64,000 nucleotides of DNA, from IMG/VR virus record IMGVR_UViG_3300009509_000001, positions 32,001 through 96,000 of that record, one strand, 5' to 3'. Of this stretch, positions 2,053 to 58,736 are shown one piece after another. Position 1 is the first letter of the stretch, and the number at the start of each line of letters is the position of its first letter. Under the pieces are notes generated by a model, which searched no databases, had not been told where the DNA came from, and worked only from the letters and a program-made list of their open reading frames with translations. The translations under genes and the position numbers were made by a program. Origin of the DNA: a virus.

Positions 2053-4329
2053 TTAAAGATGTTCGCCGTCACGGAACTGCAGGGCCTTCACCAGGAAGGA
2101 CACGCCGTACGTGTTTCCGGCCGTTCCCCGACTGGCGGCTTCGATGTTCAGCCACAGCAGCTCTGCCGGATCTCCGTCGGCTTCAGCGCCCTTGTGACTG
2201 ATGTCCAGCGTAAACTGATAGGTGACCTGCTGGCCGGCCACACCGCTCTTGCTGACGGTGTGGCTCGTCTCACCGGCCGTGCTCGCAGGATCGGTGGTAG
2301 ATATGGTATCACCATCTTTGCTGGAATTCAACCAGGCGATCATCTGCAGCGTCCCGGTGCCCGAAGGAACCAGGACGACCTCCACCACAAGCGGGGCCGA
2401 CGTATCGATCCAGCGTGCGAGCGGGAACACGGCACCGACATTGTCGTCATCCGTATTGAAATTGTTGTTGATCATGCCGGCCTTGCAGTTGGAGCTGCGC
2501 CACAGATCCTGGTCGCCCATGTTGGCGCCGGCGTCCTGGAAACTGTTCCAGAACACGGGGATACCGGCGTAGGCCCTGGCGTTTCCGGACATCTGCCGGA
2601 ACCCGTCGACATTGATCTTGACATTGTCCGTCTGCAGTCTTATCTGCTCGAAGGTCGGCGCCGTAGTGATCGTGGCCGTGATAATACGGAATCTGACCCA
2701 ATAATAACTGGTGCCCAGCGTCATCGGATCAGTCTTGGTCCAGTCGGCCCGTATGGCCGGGTTGAACATGACGTCGTAAGTTCCTGTGGCCACGGTGAAC
2801 AAAGCGCTGTTCTTGCGGTAGTACTTGCCGGACGCCTGCACGGTCATGATGTTGAACCTGGACCAGACATCTCCCCAGGTTCCGGTAGCGTCATTGGCCA
2901 CCCAGGTATCGGTGATCTCGAACGTATTCGTAGTAACGTTGGTGATCTCGAACGTACCGTTGTAGTTGGTGGTTCCGGAAATCGTGACGACGTCGCCGTT
3001 GGACAATCCGTGTGCAGCGGAAGTAACGGTGACCTGGCCGCCGCCGGCATCGGCGAACGCCGTAATAGAGCCTGTCTGTGCTGTCGGGTATTCAGCAACC
3101 ATATCGCCGGAACCGAGTACGGCCGCCACCGTACTGCTGAACTGGATTCCGAGGAACTTGTGGAATTCGGAAGTGGATATGGGAACCATCGACCCGACGT
3201 AAAGCGCATCGTTGACGTCGAGGCCCATGGTGAACGTACTCGCAGCTGGGCTCTTGGCTTCGGTCGTTCTGTCAGTGTATGTCGTAAGCCCGTCGTCATA
3301 CGTATATACAAGCATGCCGTTGACGTAGCTTGCGCCTGCGCCGAGGGACGCTTTGCGCGGGAACGTCGGATGCCCGACATGCAGCTCCGCGAGTACGGCG
3401 AGCGACTCTGCTTCTGCCGCGGTGCTGAGGAAGTGCGCCTGCATTGTCGCATCCGGGTGCAGACTGAAATAGTTGGCGTCGGAGATACCGAATCCCTTCG
3501 AGATCGTCCCGGCTCCCGCCTGGTAATTCAAAACCGTGTTGTCCAGGAAACTGACGTTGAACCCGGAGAACACACTGCCTGTCCCGGTGATGTCGCAGCC
3601 ATAGTCGTTCTCGTTCATGATCCCTGCGCGGAGGATGAGTTCGCCGCCCGACTCGATGTAGCAACCCTTAGTGGCGTTGCGCACGATGACCTCGTTGGCA
3701 TCGAGTACGCCGGTGGCCGATACGTGCAGTCCGTTGACGACGCTTGCCTGCTCACTGAAGCCACTGAATAGCGTGGCGTGTCCGCCGGAGACGAAAATAA
3801 GGTCCGTCAGTGCCAGATTGCCGCCCGTACGGATGTCGAAGATAGCGGGTGTGCCCGCTTCAACCTTGATGCCGACCGTCATTGCGTCGCCGAACGGCAG
3901 GAATACCGGACGGCGGATCGTCGGACGGGCGCTTGCATGGTTCACCAGGACACAACGGGTGACGTCCAGGAACGTGATGTCGTCCAATACGTAACTGCCG
4001 GCCGCATTGATGTTGAACGCATAGGCTGACGAAAGATGATTCTGGATGGCCACGCCGATAACCTTGGAACCGGAGGACAGGGTGATGGCTTCCTGCGTCG
4101 TGTTTCCGGTGAAGTCCAGGATGGTGTCTCCACCGAGGGCCTGCAGCGTGACGTAGGCAGGGACGTTAAGCACATTGTTGCCGATGCTGTAGACGCCGGC
4201 GTTCAGATACACGACGTACGGCTTGCTGATGGACGAGTCGGTGATGGCATCCAATGCCGCCTTGATGTCGTCGCCTACGCACAGGTTGTATATCTGCTTG
4301 GCAGGATTATGATGGTTGTCGTGGCCCAT
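2053..4329 (-). CDS. Tail fibre/spike-like protein with N-terminal beta-helix-like region
   Basis: 758 aa; beta-helix-like periodicity in the N-terminal third; AHGLSNGDVVTISGTTNYNGTFEIT segment typical of phage tail proteins; tail context. Confidence 0.65.
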   Translation of the reverse strand: MGHDNHHNPAKQIYNLCVGDDIKAALDAITDSSISKPYVVYLNAGVYSIGNNVLNVPAYVTLQALGGDTILDFTGNTTQEAITLSSGSKVIGVAIQNHLSSAYAFNINAAGSYVLDDITFLDVTRCVLVNHASARPTIRRPVFLPFGDAMTVGIKVEAGTPAIFDIRTGGNLALTDLIFVSGGHATLFSGFSEQASVVNGLHVSATGVLDANEVIVRNATKGCYIESGGELILRAGIMNENDYGCDITGTGSVFSGFNVSFLDNTVLNYQAGAGTISKGFGISDANYFSLHPDATMQAHFLSTAAEAESLAVLAELHVGHPTFPRKASLGAGASYVNGMLVYTYDDGLTTYTDRTTEAKSPAASTFTMGLDVNDALYVGSMVPISTSEFHKFLGIQFSSTVAAVLGSGDMVAEYPTAQTGSITAFADAGGGQVTVTSAAHGLSNGDVVTISGTTNYNGTFEITNVTTNTFEITDTWVANDATGTWGDVWSRFNIMTVQASGKYYRKNSALFTVATGTYDVMFNPAIRADWTKTDPMTLGTSYYWVRFRIITATITTAPTFEQIRLQTDNVKINVDGFRQMSGNARAYAGIPVFWNSFQDAGANMGDQDLWRSSNCKAGMINNNFNTDDDNVGAVFPLARWIDTSAPLVVEVVLVPSGTGTLQMIAWLNSSKDGDTISTTDPASTAGETSHTVSKSGVAGQQVTYQFTLDISHKGAEADGDPAELLWLNIEAASRGTAGNTYGVSFLVKALQFRDGEHL

Positions 4330-55914: not shown

Positions 55915-56201
55915 AATACCGGCTGCTCCTCCGTGATACGCGGCTGTCTGGTAAATCCGATGTGGTAGACTATGTGCTGGAGCACTACCTGGTGCTCGCC
56001 CATCTGGTACACGGCGAAGCCTTTCTCCTGCCCGATCAGCTTGCCCCTTGGGGACGACCGGTTGATGAGGAAGTTCACCTTGTCCATCGCCTTTCGGATC
56101 TCCTCTTCCGTCTTGATCCTGCTTGGATCGGTGTTACCCACGACGACCCGCTCTACGTGTCGGATCGCCGTGAGATCGAATGGTTTGTCGTCGTGCGACA
56201 T
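55911..56201 (-). CDS. Conserved-looking hypothetical protein
   Basis: 96 aa; coupled to the DUF2589 gene; R.VVG..DP...GEHQVVLQ...YHIGF.R.P. Confidence 0.7.
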   Translation of the reverse strand: MSHDDKPFDLTAIRHVERVVVGNTDPSRIKTEEEIRKAMDKVNFLINRSSPRGKLIGQEKGFAVYQMGEHQVVLQHIVYHIGFTRQPRITEEQPVL

Positions 56202-56836
56202 CAGGGCGTTGTTGCCGGGGTTGGGCTGATGGCGTCGTTCATCATGTCGAGAACGCGGGCCAATCCTTCAGGCATGCCGCTGTCCGACGCACTGACCGTG
56301 ACGTCGTACTTGGCGCTGTTGTCGCTCTTGCGCGTGTGCGCCGAGTGCGACGAGGTCTTGCCATGCACCTTGACCGTGGCCTTGAACGGACCCCAGCCGA
56401 CACTGGCGCTGCCTTCGAAGCCGGCTTCGCTGTCGCTGGCCTCGGTGTCCTCGGTACTGGAGTTGACGCTCATGGTGAAGGCGATGTCCACCTTGTCGAC
56501 CTTGAGGGACGGCATGGGGATGATGGCCAGCAGCGGTACGTCGATCTCCACGTTCTTCGGGGTGATCTTGGAAACCGTCTTGGTCTTGTCGGCCGGGTCC
56601 TCCACCTGTTCAAGGATGTTCTGCATGTAGCCGAACTTCACCATGTTGGCGACCTTGATCGTCTTGGTCTTGTCGGCCGGGTCCTCCACTTCCTGGAATC
56701 CGGTCTTCAGAATGAAATCCGCGTTCGCACTGATCATCTGCGCGTTCGCCTTGGCTGCGGCCTGCAAAGGGCCGCCGATCAGGGAATCCATCGGCAGGTT
56801 GCCGAATTGTTTACCCATGTCTACGAGTCCAGGCAT
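56201..56836 (-). CDS. DUF2589 family protein
   Basis: QFGNLPMDSLIGGPLQAAA...VPLLAIIPMPSL...GWGPF...TRKSDNSAKYDV.V.A...GMPEGLARVLD; GGAGGT SD. Confidence 0.8.
   Translation of the reverse strand: MPGLVDMGKQFGNLPMDSLIGGPLQAAAKANAQMISANADFILKTGFQEVEDPADKTKTIKVANMVKFGYMQNILEQVEDPADKTKTVSKITPKNVEIDVPLLAIIPMPSLKVDKVDIAFTMSVNSSTEDTEASDSEAGFEGSASVGWGPFKATVKVHGKTSSHSAHTRKSDNSAKYDVTVSASDSGMPEGLARVLDMMNDAISPTPATTP
56576..56689. repeat. 30-nt exact direct repeat inside the DUF2589 gene (VEDPADKTKT x2)
   Basis: CGTCTTGGTCTTGTCGGCCGGGTCCTCCAC at 56576-56605 and 56660-56689. Confidence 0.9.
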
Positions 56837-56997
56837 CTGGTACCTCCGTTTGTTTGTTCTTGTTGCCCTTTGTGTTAATGAAAATGGTAGCCCCGGTTTC
56901 CTGATCGCGCTGTCAACGAGCCCCTTCCGGCTGAGGCTTTAACGGCTCCCACGCGATCAGTGCCGGCTGCCCGGCAAGGCACAAGGGCACTACCTGA

Positions 56998-57149
56998 TGG
57001 CCAGGAAGGCGGGACTTGAACCCGCATAAGGATGCATCCACACCGACGGTCGGAACGCGAACGCGCTGACTACGCGCTCCAACCAAGCTACCCGGCCGAG
57101 CCGGGTCACTGCCAGTTGTGTCGGTGGCCTACCGTTCGGCCACTCCCTG
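56998..57149 (-). ncRNA. tRNA-like RNA 1 (152 nt), anticodon loop replaced by a ~72-nt insert
   Basis: Acceptor CAGGGAG/CTTCCTG, G73, CCA; D arm GCC-GAACGGTA-GGC; stem CACCGAC/GTCGGTG; variable hairpin GGATGCATCC; T arm GCGGG-TTCAAGT-CCCGC. Confidence 0.7.
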
Positions 57150-57238
57150 GAATGCCTCTGACCCATACGCCGGTCTAAGGCGGTAGCGACGTCCGTAGAG
57201 CCCGTGCGCTCCTTGGCTACTTCTGTAAGGCACGGTGT

Positions 57239-57336
57239 TGGTGAAGAGTGACGGATTTGAACCGCCTTCAAGTGCGTCCTGCCCAACGGCCGAAGCCGTG
57301 CTCCGCTCTTGCTTTACCGACATAAGATAACCCTTC
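57239..57336 (-). ncRNA. tRNA-like RNA 2 (98 nt), anticodon loop replaced by a 27-nt UUCG-hairpin insert
   Basis: Acceptor GAAGGGT/ACTCTTC, A73, CCA; D arm CTT-ATGTCGGTA-AAG; stem AAGAGCG/CGCACTT (one mismatch); T arm GGCGG-TTCAAAT-CCGTC. Confidence 0.65.
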
Positions 57337-57411
57337 AATAAATGCCGACCCCTTACCACCATCATGTGTCAGGTAGTGCGCGGGTCGGCGCAATCAATGG
57401 AGGCAAGGTAC

Positions 57412-57663
57412 TCAAGTGAACCCGGAAGGGTACTGCTGCCATTTTATCGGCGGCCCCGAAAACAGGGCCATACCCTCCTCCAAACAGCCCGCTATGTCCA
57501 CCTCCAGGACGGGGGCCTGAGTTCCACAGGCGATGAGCAGACATGGCACGTCGGCGCTACCGAAGTCGCAGTGCGCCGGGTGGTTGTGGCCGCCCCTGCA
57601 TAGGACGTGATGCTTCACTGGCTGTACGGTGATCAAACCCGCCGCGAGCAAAGTCATCAACAT
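57412..57663 (-). CDS. Small Cys/His-rich hypothetical protein
   Basis: Start at MLMTLL with a perfect AGGAGGT SD; 83 aa. Confidence 0.5.
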   Translation of the reverse strand: MLMTLLAAGLITVQPVKHHVLCRGGHNHPAHCDFGSADVPCLLIACGTQAPVLEVDIAGCLEEGMALFSGPPIKWQQYPSGFT

Positions 57664-57825
57664 GGCTGCACCTCCTGTGTTGAAATCTAAAGGGCACTTC
57701 CCTCCCTCCCCTTCGTGAGCCACGTTCGCTCCGTCCAGTTCGGGAGGTGCCGGCGACCCGGCAAGGCAAGAACCCGCCTGCGGGAGCGCGGCGGCGATGC
57801 GCCGTCAATCACGCTCCATGCTTTA

Positions 57826-57854
57826 TCTATAACGGGAGTTTGCCGCTAAGTCAA
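57826..57854 (-). promoter_or_regulatory. Sigma70-like promoter for the small ORF/tRNA-like/DUF2589 unit
   Basis: TTGACT-17 nt-TATAGA. Confidence 0.7.
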
Positions 57855-57871
57855 GGCAACTTGGAAATTAC

Positions 57872-57904
57872 TCAGTGGATAATCAGTGGATAATCAGTGG
57901 CTAA
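57872..57904. repeat. Three tandem 11-bp repeats resembling DnaA boxes
   Basis: TCAGTGGATAA x2 plus TCAGTGGCTAA; the minus strand reads TTATCCACT. Confidence 0.85.
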
Positions 57905-57910
57905 CTTAAA

Positions 57911-58219
57911 TTACCAGGAAGTATTCTGCGGATGGTGCACGGCCTCGGGCGGCGTGTCGTCGAAGAGTATGCGGTGCGGCTGCACGTCGAAGATGATGCG
58001 GTACTGGATGCCGGCCCGCTCCATGTCGGCCAGGATCGTGCGCTTCGTGTTCTCGATGCTCCAGGGCTTGCCGTGGTCGTGCAGGCCGCGCATGGTGATG
58101 AGTATGATGTCATGGCCCTCGTCGTGAACGCGCTGCAGCCGCTCGAAGGCGCCGGGCAGCCACTCGCCCGTGTGGTAGTTCACGAGCGTTCCGTCAATGT
58201 CGTAGATGTGCGTGCTCAT
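57911..58219 (-). CDS. HAD-superfamily hydrolase (short phosphatase-like)
   Basis: Start at MSTHIYDIDGTL (DxDGT motif I), LITMRG (motif II), ILFDD. Confidence 0.75.
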   Translation of the reverse strand: MSTHIYDIDGTLVNYHTGEWLPGAFERLQRVHDEGHDIILITMRGLHDHGKPWSIENTKRTILADMERAGIQYRIIFDVQPHRILFDDTPPEAVHHPQNTSW

Positions 58220-58497
58220 CGTATGAACCCATAGGCTATGAGTCCGGCGCTCAGGCCGACGATGATCCAGAAGCACCAGGCCATGACCTTGGCCCTGCGG
58301 GCGGACACCTTATGCTGCGGCGTCCAGTTGTTGGCGTCGGCGATTCGCCGCGCTTCGGCCTTGGCTTCCTTGTACGCTTCCTTCTTCTGGCGCTTGTGCC
58401 GCTCGGCCAGCTTGCGCTTGTTGGTCGTACGGTGGCTGTTGTGCTTGCGGTTCCAGTTGAGGGTCCTGCTGCGCTCCTGGTTGTTCACATAGCTCAT
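58216..58497 (-). CDS. Basic protein with C-terminal TM helix
   Basis: K/R-rich, ending VMAWCFWIIVGLSAGLIAYGFI. Confidence 0.65.
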   Translation of the reverse strand: MSYVNNQERSRTLNWNRKHNSHRTTNKRKLAERHKRQKKEAYKEAKAEARRIADANNWTPQHKVSARRAKVMAWCFWIIVGLSAGLIAYGFIR

Positions 58498-58736
58498 GGG
58501 ATCGTGTACTCCATCACTTCGTTGAAATCCTTGATGGCGGCCTGGGCGTTCGGATGCGGATCGGTGCCGGCGCCACGCTGGTTGCCGTTGATGAAGAACT
58601 GCCAGCGCCAGAAACTGTCATGTCCCTTGGTGGCGGCCCCGCCCGTGTAGGGCTCGGTCGGTTTTCCGCAATGCTCCTTCATGCCGGGGCCGCGGCCGCC
58701 GCACTCGGTGCATACCATCATCAGTCGTTGCGTCAT
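58494..58736 (-). CDS. Small Zn-finger-like protein
   Basis: CTECG...HCG; AGGAGG SD. Confidence 0.6.
   Translation of the reverse strand: MTQRLMMVCTECGGRGPGMKEHCGKPTEPYTGGAATKGHDSFWRWQFFINGNQRGAGTDPHPNAQAAIKDFNEVMEYTIP

Follow-up and report, generated by a model that had tools for sequence, protein, structure and literature searches.

Phage transfer RNA (tRNA) genes are usually understood either as an aid to codon usage or as a source of new tRNAs where host defences have destroyed the old ones. The locus described here raises the question of what is to be made of a phage RNA that has the body of a tRNA and nothing with which to read a codon. It lies in a 64,000-nucleotide (nt) stretch, hereafter the window, of the IMG/VR virus record IMGVR_UViG_3300009509_000001, a complete virus genome of 194,576 bp with direct terminal repeats and a G+C content of about 59%, of which the window represents bases 32001-96000. 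The element in question, here called RNA 2, is a 98-nt tRNA-shaped sequence without an anticodon loop; a second and longer tRNA-shaped sequence, RNA 1, lies downstream of it. We conclude that RNA 2 is a real, unusual tRNA-derived gene, so far a one-off, and that selection is well supported for RNA 1 but no more than possible for RNA 2. The parts of RNA 2 are as follows (window coordinates; position p of RNA 2 corresponds to window coordinate 57337-p):

57239-57336, minus strand: RNA 2, 98-nt tRNA-shaped RNA without anticodon loop, from sequence reading, shell scan and folding
57330-57336, minus strand: acceptor 5' strand GAAGGGU, 7/7 pairs with 57243-57249, pairing probability 0.74-1.0
57239-57249, minus strand: acceptor 3' strand ACUCUUC, discriminator A and encoded CCA, from sequence reading and shell scan
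57311-57327, minus strand: D-arm region (positions 10-26), stem CUU/AAG, GG-bearing loop AUGUCGGUA, as drawn by ARAGORN; thermodynamically weak, with alternative registers
57250-57266, minus strand: T arm GGCGG / UUCAAAU / CCGUC, pairing probability 0.94-0.95
57269-57311, minus strand: long interrupted arm of 14 pairs in place of the anticodon arm (positions 26-68); minimum-free-energy (MFE) and centroid folds agree
57286-57299, minus strand: ACGGC-UUCG-GCCGU hairpin with the cUUCGg tetraloop at 57291-57294, one of two such hairpins genome-wide

The acceptor stem comprises seven pairs, one of which is G5-U68, and its 3' strand (57249-57243) is followed by A and CCA at 57242-57239. Nucleotides of the tRNA core are likewise present, namely U8, A9, A14, the D-loop GG and an A equivalent to A21. 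All features that an earlier note on this DNA, made from the letters alone, had listed for RNA 2 (acceptor, A73, CCA, D-loop GG, T loop and UUCG insert) are found in place on the minus strand. The decoding part is missing: there is no 5-bp anticodon stem with a 7-nt loop bearing U33 and a purine at position 37, and a 4-nt loop caps a long helix instead. Because the anticodon arm is replaced by this helix, RNA 2 cannot read a codon.

The long arm is composed of the helices CAAG/CUUG, GCG/CGC, GC/GC and ACGGC/GCCGU, each with a pairing probability of about 0.9 in thermodynamic folding. The GCG/CGC helix indeed encloses 27 nt holding ACGGC-UUCG-GCCGU, as the earlier note had described; folding, however, gives a continuous arm from position 26 to position 68 and not a 3-bp anticodon stem around a loose insert. 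Thermodynamic folding thus predicts a coherent structure in place of the anticodon arm and not debris. Within this arm, at positions 33-60 (57277-57304, minus strand), an internal loop displays G-A on both strands (G34 A35 and G59 A60) and adjoins a 2-nt bulge (A57 G58). Judged by eye, the internal loop resembles a kink-turn with tandem sheared G-A pairs, the length of the bulge excepted.

RNA 2 is confirmed as a real tRNA scaffold and more than a chance pattern. A shell scan had four requirements: a T stem of 5 bp with G53-C61, a T loop of the form TTCRANN, 7/7 pairs in the acceptor stem, and NCCA. It returned exactly two matches in the whole genome, RNA 2 and RNA 1, whereas 40 shuffled genomes gave no match. 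For five-pair cUUCGg hairpins the genome-wide expectation is 0.15, and two are present; the one that is not part of RNA 2, GCUCC-UUCG-GGAGC, is situated outside the window at genome position 21534 (minus strand). The insert of RNA 2 has no second copy in the genome and is therefore not a repeated or mobile palindrome. The anatomy of RNA 2, its non-randomness and its lack of an anticodon arm are matters of direct observation. Standard detectors report nothing: ARAGORN with default settings finds no gene, no Rfam family reaches its gathering score, and RF00005 has no match over the whole genome. The phage therefore has no canonical tRNA and only the two tRNA bodies. The best Rfam match of RNA 2 is tRNA-Sec with 24.3 bits (cut-off 47) and E=0.08.

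Comparison with related contigs, which were reached through homologs of the DUF2589 gene downstream of the two RNAs, shows RNA 1 to be the conserved element and RNA 2 part of a variable cassette. The closest relative, contig L041, has a HAD-like flanking gene that is 96% identical at the protein level and a nearly identical promoter and leader; the neighbour gene in the more distant contig L005 is 91% identical. The features compared are:

56998-57149, minus strand: RNA 1, 152-nt tRNA-shaped RNA with a 72-nt insert, from shell scan and folding; the conserved member of the pair
57150-57238, minus strand: spacer of 89 nt between RNA 2 and RNA 1, absent from L041

Homologs of RNA 1 are present in both relatives (L041:2013-2164, with 147 of 152 positions identical, and L005:67-226). 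Of the six acceptor pairs that the alignment fold scores, four have both bases substituted in L005, yet pairing is kept at all seven positions; the anticodon-type stem and the T stem show compensatory changes as well. Within the insert, the motifs ACAACUGGCAG and GGGUAGCUUGG do not vary among the relatives, and the two hairpins differ in sequence. Judging from these substitutions, RNA 1 is indeed under selection for its structure, and its retention with compensatory changes argues that non-decoding tRNA shells are maintained in this lineage. The discriminator of RNA 1 is G in the window and in L041 and A in L005, a variation that speaks against a conserved amino-acid identity of the RNA 1 family. 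The RNA 1 insert also holds a D-arm-like segment, GGGUAGCUUGGUUGGAGC. Searches for more homologs by means of the insert motifs yielded seven chance matches in IMG/VR and none in JGI metagenomes or in genomes.

RNA 2 and RNA 1 share no significant sequence similarity, in agreement with the earlier note, which had called the two scaffolds unrelated and had placed them 90 nt apart (the measured distance is 89 nt, 57238-57150). Its statement that only the decoding part is lost holds as well, the shell being complete and no single-insert removal rescuing an anticodon arm. The inference it drew, that two such scaffolds argue for selection rather than decay, is upheld for RNA 1 by the near-identity in L041 and the compensatory changes in L005; it is not supported for RNA 2, which is missing in L041 and for which no homolog was found.

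We tentatively prefer, with somewhat less than even confidence, to read RNA 2 as a lineage-specific, tRNA-derived, non-decoding RNA that undergoes tRNA-type processing and, acting in trans, imitates the top half of a tRNA. Transcription would proceed from a sigma-70-like promoter (57854-57826) in the order leader, an 83-aa open reading frame (ORF83), RNA 2, RNA 1 and DUF2589. The tRNA shape would lead host RNase P to cut before G57336, and removal of the 3' extension as far as the CCA encoded at 57239 would leave a stable RNA of about 98 nt; cleavage of the polycistronic transcript would be a side effect. The product would keep the acceptor/T-arm stack, the D/T elbow nucleotides and ACCA, with a rigid 14-pair cUUCGg-capped helix instead of the anticodon arm. 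Such a top-half mimic could tie up proteins specific for the acceptor end or the elbow, e.g., host enzymes attacking tRNA ends. Its transcription, processing, stability and any binding partner are inferred. A working RNA is favoured by the stable coherent arm, the otherwise flawless shell, the lack of an anticodon remnant and the conserved sibling of the same design. The surrounding elements on which this order of events draws are:

57826-57854, minus strand: sigma-70-like promoter TTGACT-17-TATAGA, identical in L041
57747-57768, minus strand: leader hairpin motif, copy 1, TGCCTTGCCGGG-TC-GCCGGCAC, also in L041
57412-57663, minus strand: ORF83, an orphan reading frame with an AGGAGG ribosome-binding site, in the same indel as RNA 2
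57369-57379, minus strand: upstream arm of an 11-bp inverted repeat, GCACUACCUGA, RNA 2 and RNA 1 enclosed
56987-56997, minus strand: downstream arm of the inverted repeat, UCAGGUAGUGC, RNA 2 and RNA 1 enclosed
56960-56981, minus strand: leader hairpin motif, copy 2, just after RNA 1, not in L041

RNA 2 and RNA 1 are situated on the minus strand in a 575-nt stretch without genes, bounded upstream by ORF83 (57663-57412) and downstream by the DUF2589 gene (56836-56201). Glycosyltransferase, methyltransferase and GNAT genes follow further upstream on the same strand. ORF83 matches no Pfam family, and its only homolog among 5.8 billion proteins is ORF83 itself. The TTGACT-17-TATAGA site is not reported by a consensus promoter scanner. 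The 22-nt leader motif, a GCCGG/CCGGC hairpin, has only two copies in the whole genome; they vary in the loop only and bracket ORF83, RNA 2 and RNA 1. A long-range inverted repeat of such a length as the 11-bp repeat is found in just 1.7% of 450-nt genome windows, and the DNA holding either of its arms is lacking in L041. RNA 2 is directly preceded by a hairpin and then AUUUAUU, with U as the last base ahead of G57336.

Promoter, leader motif, inverted repeat and upstream hairpin would all fit co-transcription and tRNA-type processing, and the inverted repeat would be compatible with a processing stalk around both RNAs. Folding of the whole 461-nt precursor recovered neither the tRNA shapes nor the long-range stem, a result that we judge uninformative for a GC-rich RNA of this length. 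Two further repetitive regions were noted. Directly after the HAD-like gene, at 57872-57904, an 11-nt unit occurs three times in tandem, inside a 43-nt stretch that L041 lacks. A gene-free array at genome positions 141,700-145,600, outside the window, consists of units with GGCG-N3-CGCC hairpins and has no visible link to the tRNA-like pair.

RNAs of comparable design are known from several systems. Transfer-messenger RNA (tmRNA) has a tRNA-like top half and a CCA end, is processed by RNase P, and carries a long helix in place of the anticodon arm. RNA 2 shares with it the acceptor/T-arm top half, the CCA and the replacing helix, but has A3-U70 instead of the G3-U70 alanine identity pair, possesses neither pseudoknots nor a tag frame, and is only 98 nt long; the tmRNA search of ARAGORN found none. 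The tRNA-like domain of tmRNA is described in a published account (PMC3985003). The bacterial Y RNA YrlA contains a Ro60/Rsr-bound module that is a non-coding mimic of the tRNA D/T elbow (PMC4201824). It mimics the elbow without decoding, as we propose for RNA 2. Its 5' and 3' ends reportedly sit in the Ro-binding stem and not in a CCA-ended acceptor stem. RNA 2 has no Rfam match to YrlA or Y RNA, and no TROVE/Ro60 (PF05731) protein is found in the phage genome.

A decoy role is suggested by analogy with known tRNA-targeting defences, among them Cas12a3, which cuts tRNA tails (PMC12851939), and retron Ec78, which is countered by the tRNA-Tyr of phage T5 (bioRxiv 10.1101/2023.03.15.532788). Anti-defence phage tRNAs such as T5 tRNA-Tyr are tRNA-shaped, and their proposed value lies in the conflict with tRNA-attacking host enzymes, as we propose for RNA 2. 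They decode and replace cleaved host tRNAs, whereas RNA 2 cannot decode and could therefore act against tRNA-attacking defences only as a decoy.

Among phage RNAs, species 1 and species 2 of T4 (rnaC, rnaD) are likewise small RNAs without a decoding role; they adjoin tRNA genes and are annotated as stable and of unknown function. T4 rnaC has a canonical T arm (CCGGG/UUCGAAU/CCCGG), as has RNA 2. Phage BLAST reveals no sequence similarity between the T4 RNAs and RNA 2, and in our own fold they lack a full 7-bp acceptor stem with encoded CCA, the shell of RNA 2 being much more complete. Vibrio phage KVP40 carries tRNA-Pseudo-3, -4 and -5 (113-124 nt, annotated as tRNA-OTHER pseudogenes), in which the anticodon arm carries an insert and the acceptor, D and T arms are complete; like RNA 2 they are over-long. 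These genes, however, keep a 7-nt anticodon loop beside the insert and can be called by ARAGORN with introns, while RNA 2 has no such loop; their inserts share a CUGAYAAG motif to which the insert of RNA 2 is unrelated. In the KVP40 segment NC_005083 178467-183494 (L057) the tRNA-Pseudo genes are located at 2282-2394, 2405-2528 and 4079-4194, and their inserts have in common the CUGAYAAG hairpin and a ...UUC..UGCA stretch. They give the impression of a family of small tRNA inserts and not of dead genes.

RNA 2 fits an informal class of 'phage non-decoding tRNA-shaped RNAs', a class that has no formal definition or curated model and takes in T4 rnaC and rnaD; it is encoded by a phage, has the acceptor/T frame of a tRNA without a usable anticodon arm, and lies in a tRNA-like cluster. 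Unrelated IMG/VR contigs (L065, L068 = L070, L059/L066) contain tRNA-shaped genes with UUCG-capped hairpins that ARAGORN fails to call, introns allowed or not. One of these, 124 nt long (L065:1011-1134, minus strand), occupies the slot between tRNA-Ile and tRNA-Asn in an array of 12 tRNAs. A further one, of 88 nt (L068:1053-1140, plus strand, identical in L070), follows an insert-bearing tRNA-shaped sequence, which ARAGORN does not call either.

Several observations weigh against RNA 2 as a working top-half mimic. Its D stem is weak, with three pairs, a U-C mismatch and low pairing probability, and just 2 nt lie between the long arm and the T stem, unlike in a normal tRNA core. Given this weak stem and short junction, the core may differ from that of a normal tRNA and the elbow may not form. 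The z-score of the RNA 2 fold is only -1.24, and no partner protein was identified, the phage-encoded candidates looked for (CCA-adding enzyme, RtcB, Ro60 and Rnl2-type ligase) being absent. The closest relative, L041, lacks RNA 2, ORF83, the spacer of 89 nt and the 146 nt that follow RNA 1; its leader is joined straight to RNA 1 and RNA 1 almost straight to the 5' untranslated region of DUF2589. In L005, an ordinary tRNA(CAU) (L005:1-59, with a CUCAUAA anticodon loop and its 5' part cut off by the contig end) lies 7 nt upstream of the RNA 1 homolog.

The search for RNA 2 homologs by IMG/VR pattern scans, genome scan, BLAST and covariance model found none, so that comparative support from covariation or conservation is lacking for RNA 2. 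In IMG/VR, neither the exact 3' half of RNA 2 nor the insert pattern with free stem positions led to a homolog. The combined D-loop and T-loop pattern retrieved only class II tRNAs and unrelated T-arm RNAs there, and the pattern of UUCG, T loop and ACCA retrieved canonical tRNAs and some unrelated non-canonical ones. The T-arm and acceptor pattern had a single match in 185,579 genomes, an unrelated tRNA. With blastn, only short T-arm matches were obtained in 50,697 phage records and no homolog in E. coli genomes; the best phage match, 25/28 to the 3' 28 nt of KVP40 tRNA-Pseudo-4 (T arm and acceptor strand), is not significant (E=0.9). Covariance model R1 gave weak cross-matches to RNA 1 homologs only, in the related records and loci. 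Beyond the closest relatives, no tRNA-like element was found beside DUF2589 in 22 metagenome loci and several contigs.

The strongest rival, which we regard as unlikely and nevertheless take seriously, is that RNA 2 is a disabled tRNA, a functionless pseudogene whose anticodon arm was rebuilt by insertion or rearrangement and which is heading for the loss already seen in L041, where the leader runs straight into RNA 1. The original may perhaps have been a counterpart of the canonical tRNA(CAU) just upstream of RNA 1 in L005. The earlier note had named ordinary tRNAs among the homologs as a sign of a degenerate copy, and the L005 gene comes close to this, but its similarity to RNA 2 is not significant (p=0.11). 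The spacer at 57150-57238 was likewise considered as a decayed tRNA(CAU) and rejected, as it has no similarity to the L005 gene either.

The weak D stem with its U-C mismatch, the non-canonical core junction, the empty homolog searches and the over-long genes annotated as tRNA pseudogenes in KVP40-type phages speak for a disabled tRNA. Decay, however, should hit the whole molecule, whereas RNA 2 has a flawless acceptor stem (7/7), T arm (5/5), T loop and CCA and departs from a tRNA solely in its coherent, cUUCGg-capped arm of 14 pairs. The cUUCGg hairpin is not a repeated or mobile palindrome of the genome, nor are traces of a 7-nt anticodon loop present beside the insert. Furthermore, the same-design neighbour RNA 1 is conserved, and the gene layout of the window, including the 83-aa ORF and a 576-nt gap, recurs in contigs from three other sequencing runs. 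The samples of runs SRR14699972, SRR14699973 and SRR14699976 contain this phage.

Rather improbable in our estimation is a second rival, according to which RNA 2 is a cis-acting signal for RNase P and 3' trimming that splits the ORF83 and DUF2589 messages in the manner of tRNA punctuation, the released RNA having no role. The location is suggestive: both RNAs belong to the coding strand of an operon, flanked by DUF2589 and by an ORF that has a ribosome-binding site, all of them behind a single promoter-like site; in L041 some 50 nt separate RNA 1, located in the 5' leader, from the start codon of DUF2589. The hairpin and AUUUAUU before RNA 2 would shield the 3' end of the upstream fragment after an RNase P cut, the inverted repeat surrounds both RNAs like a stalk, and RNA 2 and ORF83 come and go together, being jointly present in the window and jointly absent from L041. 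An acceptor/T minihelix would nevertheless suffice for cleavage, and the D arm, the elbow nucleotides, the encoded CCA and the 43-nt arm exceed this need. The strictly conserved single-stranded motifs in the RNA 1 insert, too, suggest a role for a released RNA.

A bolder proposal, to which we assign only a slight chance, makes both RNA 2 and RNA 1 purpose-built decoys, i.e., anticodon-less top halves released by RNase P that would absorb host immune enzymes. Their targets would be enzymes acting on the acceptor end or the elbow, such as tail-cutting nucleases or nucleotidyl- or pyrophosphotransferase toxins, and translation would be left undisturbed. The variable inserts might then tune which enemy is bound, and cassettes of ORF83 and RNA 2 might be swapped between related phages as counter-defence modules.

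Very improbable is the view that the insert is spliced out after transcription to leave a decoding tRNA, e.g., Arg(UCG), in the way of the 'enigmatic' tRNA introns of large phages. Such introns are on record in megaphages (bioRxiv 10.1101/356790), and the KVP40 pseudo-tRNAs resemble tRNAs with an intact anticodon loop and a common insert. ARAGORN with introns does report a tRNA-Arg(tcg) with an 8-nt intron, but only at the relaxed threshold -ps90. In this solution two of the four stem pairs are G-U, the cUUCGg hairpin is lost and the energy is implausible (-1.8 against an MFE of -30.6 kcal/mol, about 29 apart). The reading of RNA 2 as an intron-containing tRNA also failed in insert-removal enumeration, in which no canonical anticodon arm was restored: of all single-insert removals none gives a 5-bp stem with a Y32-U33-N3-R37 loop, and the three solutions found when 4 of 5 pairs are allowed do not exceed those obtained with the middle of the molecule shuffled (2.7 +/- 5).

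The 27-nt insert is also far too short to be a group I intron, and no relevant Rfam intron or ribozyme was matched at E<=10 over 56000-58500. Enzymes for splicing or repair point in the same direction, the phage genome encoding no RtcB, Rnl2-type RNA ligase or CCA-adding enzyme; a search with the PF09511 (T4 Rnl1) profile is uninformative, its own controls having been silent as well.

The weakest rival, a 78-aa ORF crossing RNA 2 (57365-57132, minus strand) as the actual gene, has a negligible chance and was rejected: the frame is open and has one match in 1.84 billion representatives (P0133, E=4.9e-6), but no ribosome-binding site precedes its ATG, no Pfam family is matched, the frame continues into RNA 1, and the sole match consists of a short NPxLFTNxVPF motif, repeated about ten times in an 844-aa protein, that lies solely in the stretch of the frame set by the T arm, acceptor strand and CCA. 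P0133 (L079:1501-4035) is a metagenomic protein with about ten repeats of G-x-NPNLFTNPVPF and surfaced only because the T arm, acceptor strand and CCA of RNA 2, when translated, read GGSNPSLFTNTVPY. What probability remains belongs to explanations not listed here.

With two non-decoding tRNA bodies, one of them conserved, and no decoding tRNA, the phage suggests that the tRNA frame, with its handle for RNase P, its CCA and its elbow, may be reused as a scaffold. The three close relatives display three different contents ahead of the same RNA 1. If RNA 2 is merely a dying tRNA, the locus would record the fast gain, loss and remodelling that take place in phage tRNA clusters. Should RNA 2, by contrast, prove to be stable and to bind a host factor, it would offer an experimental handle on phage small RNAs that have been discarded as pseudogenes or missed by annotation.

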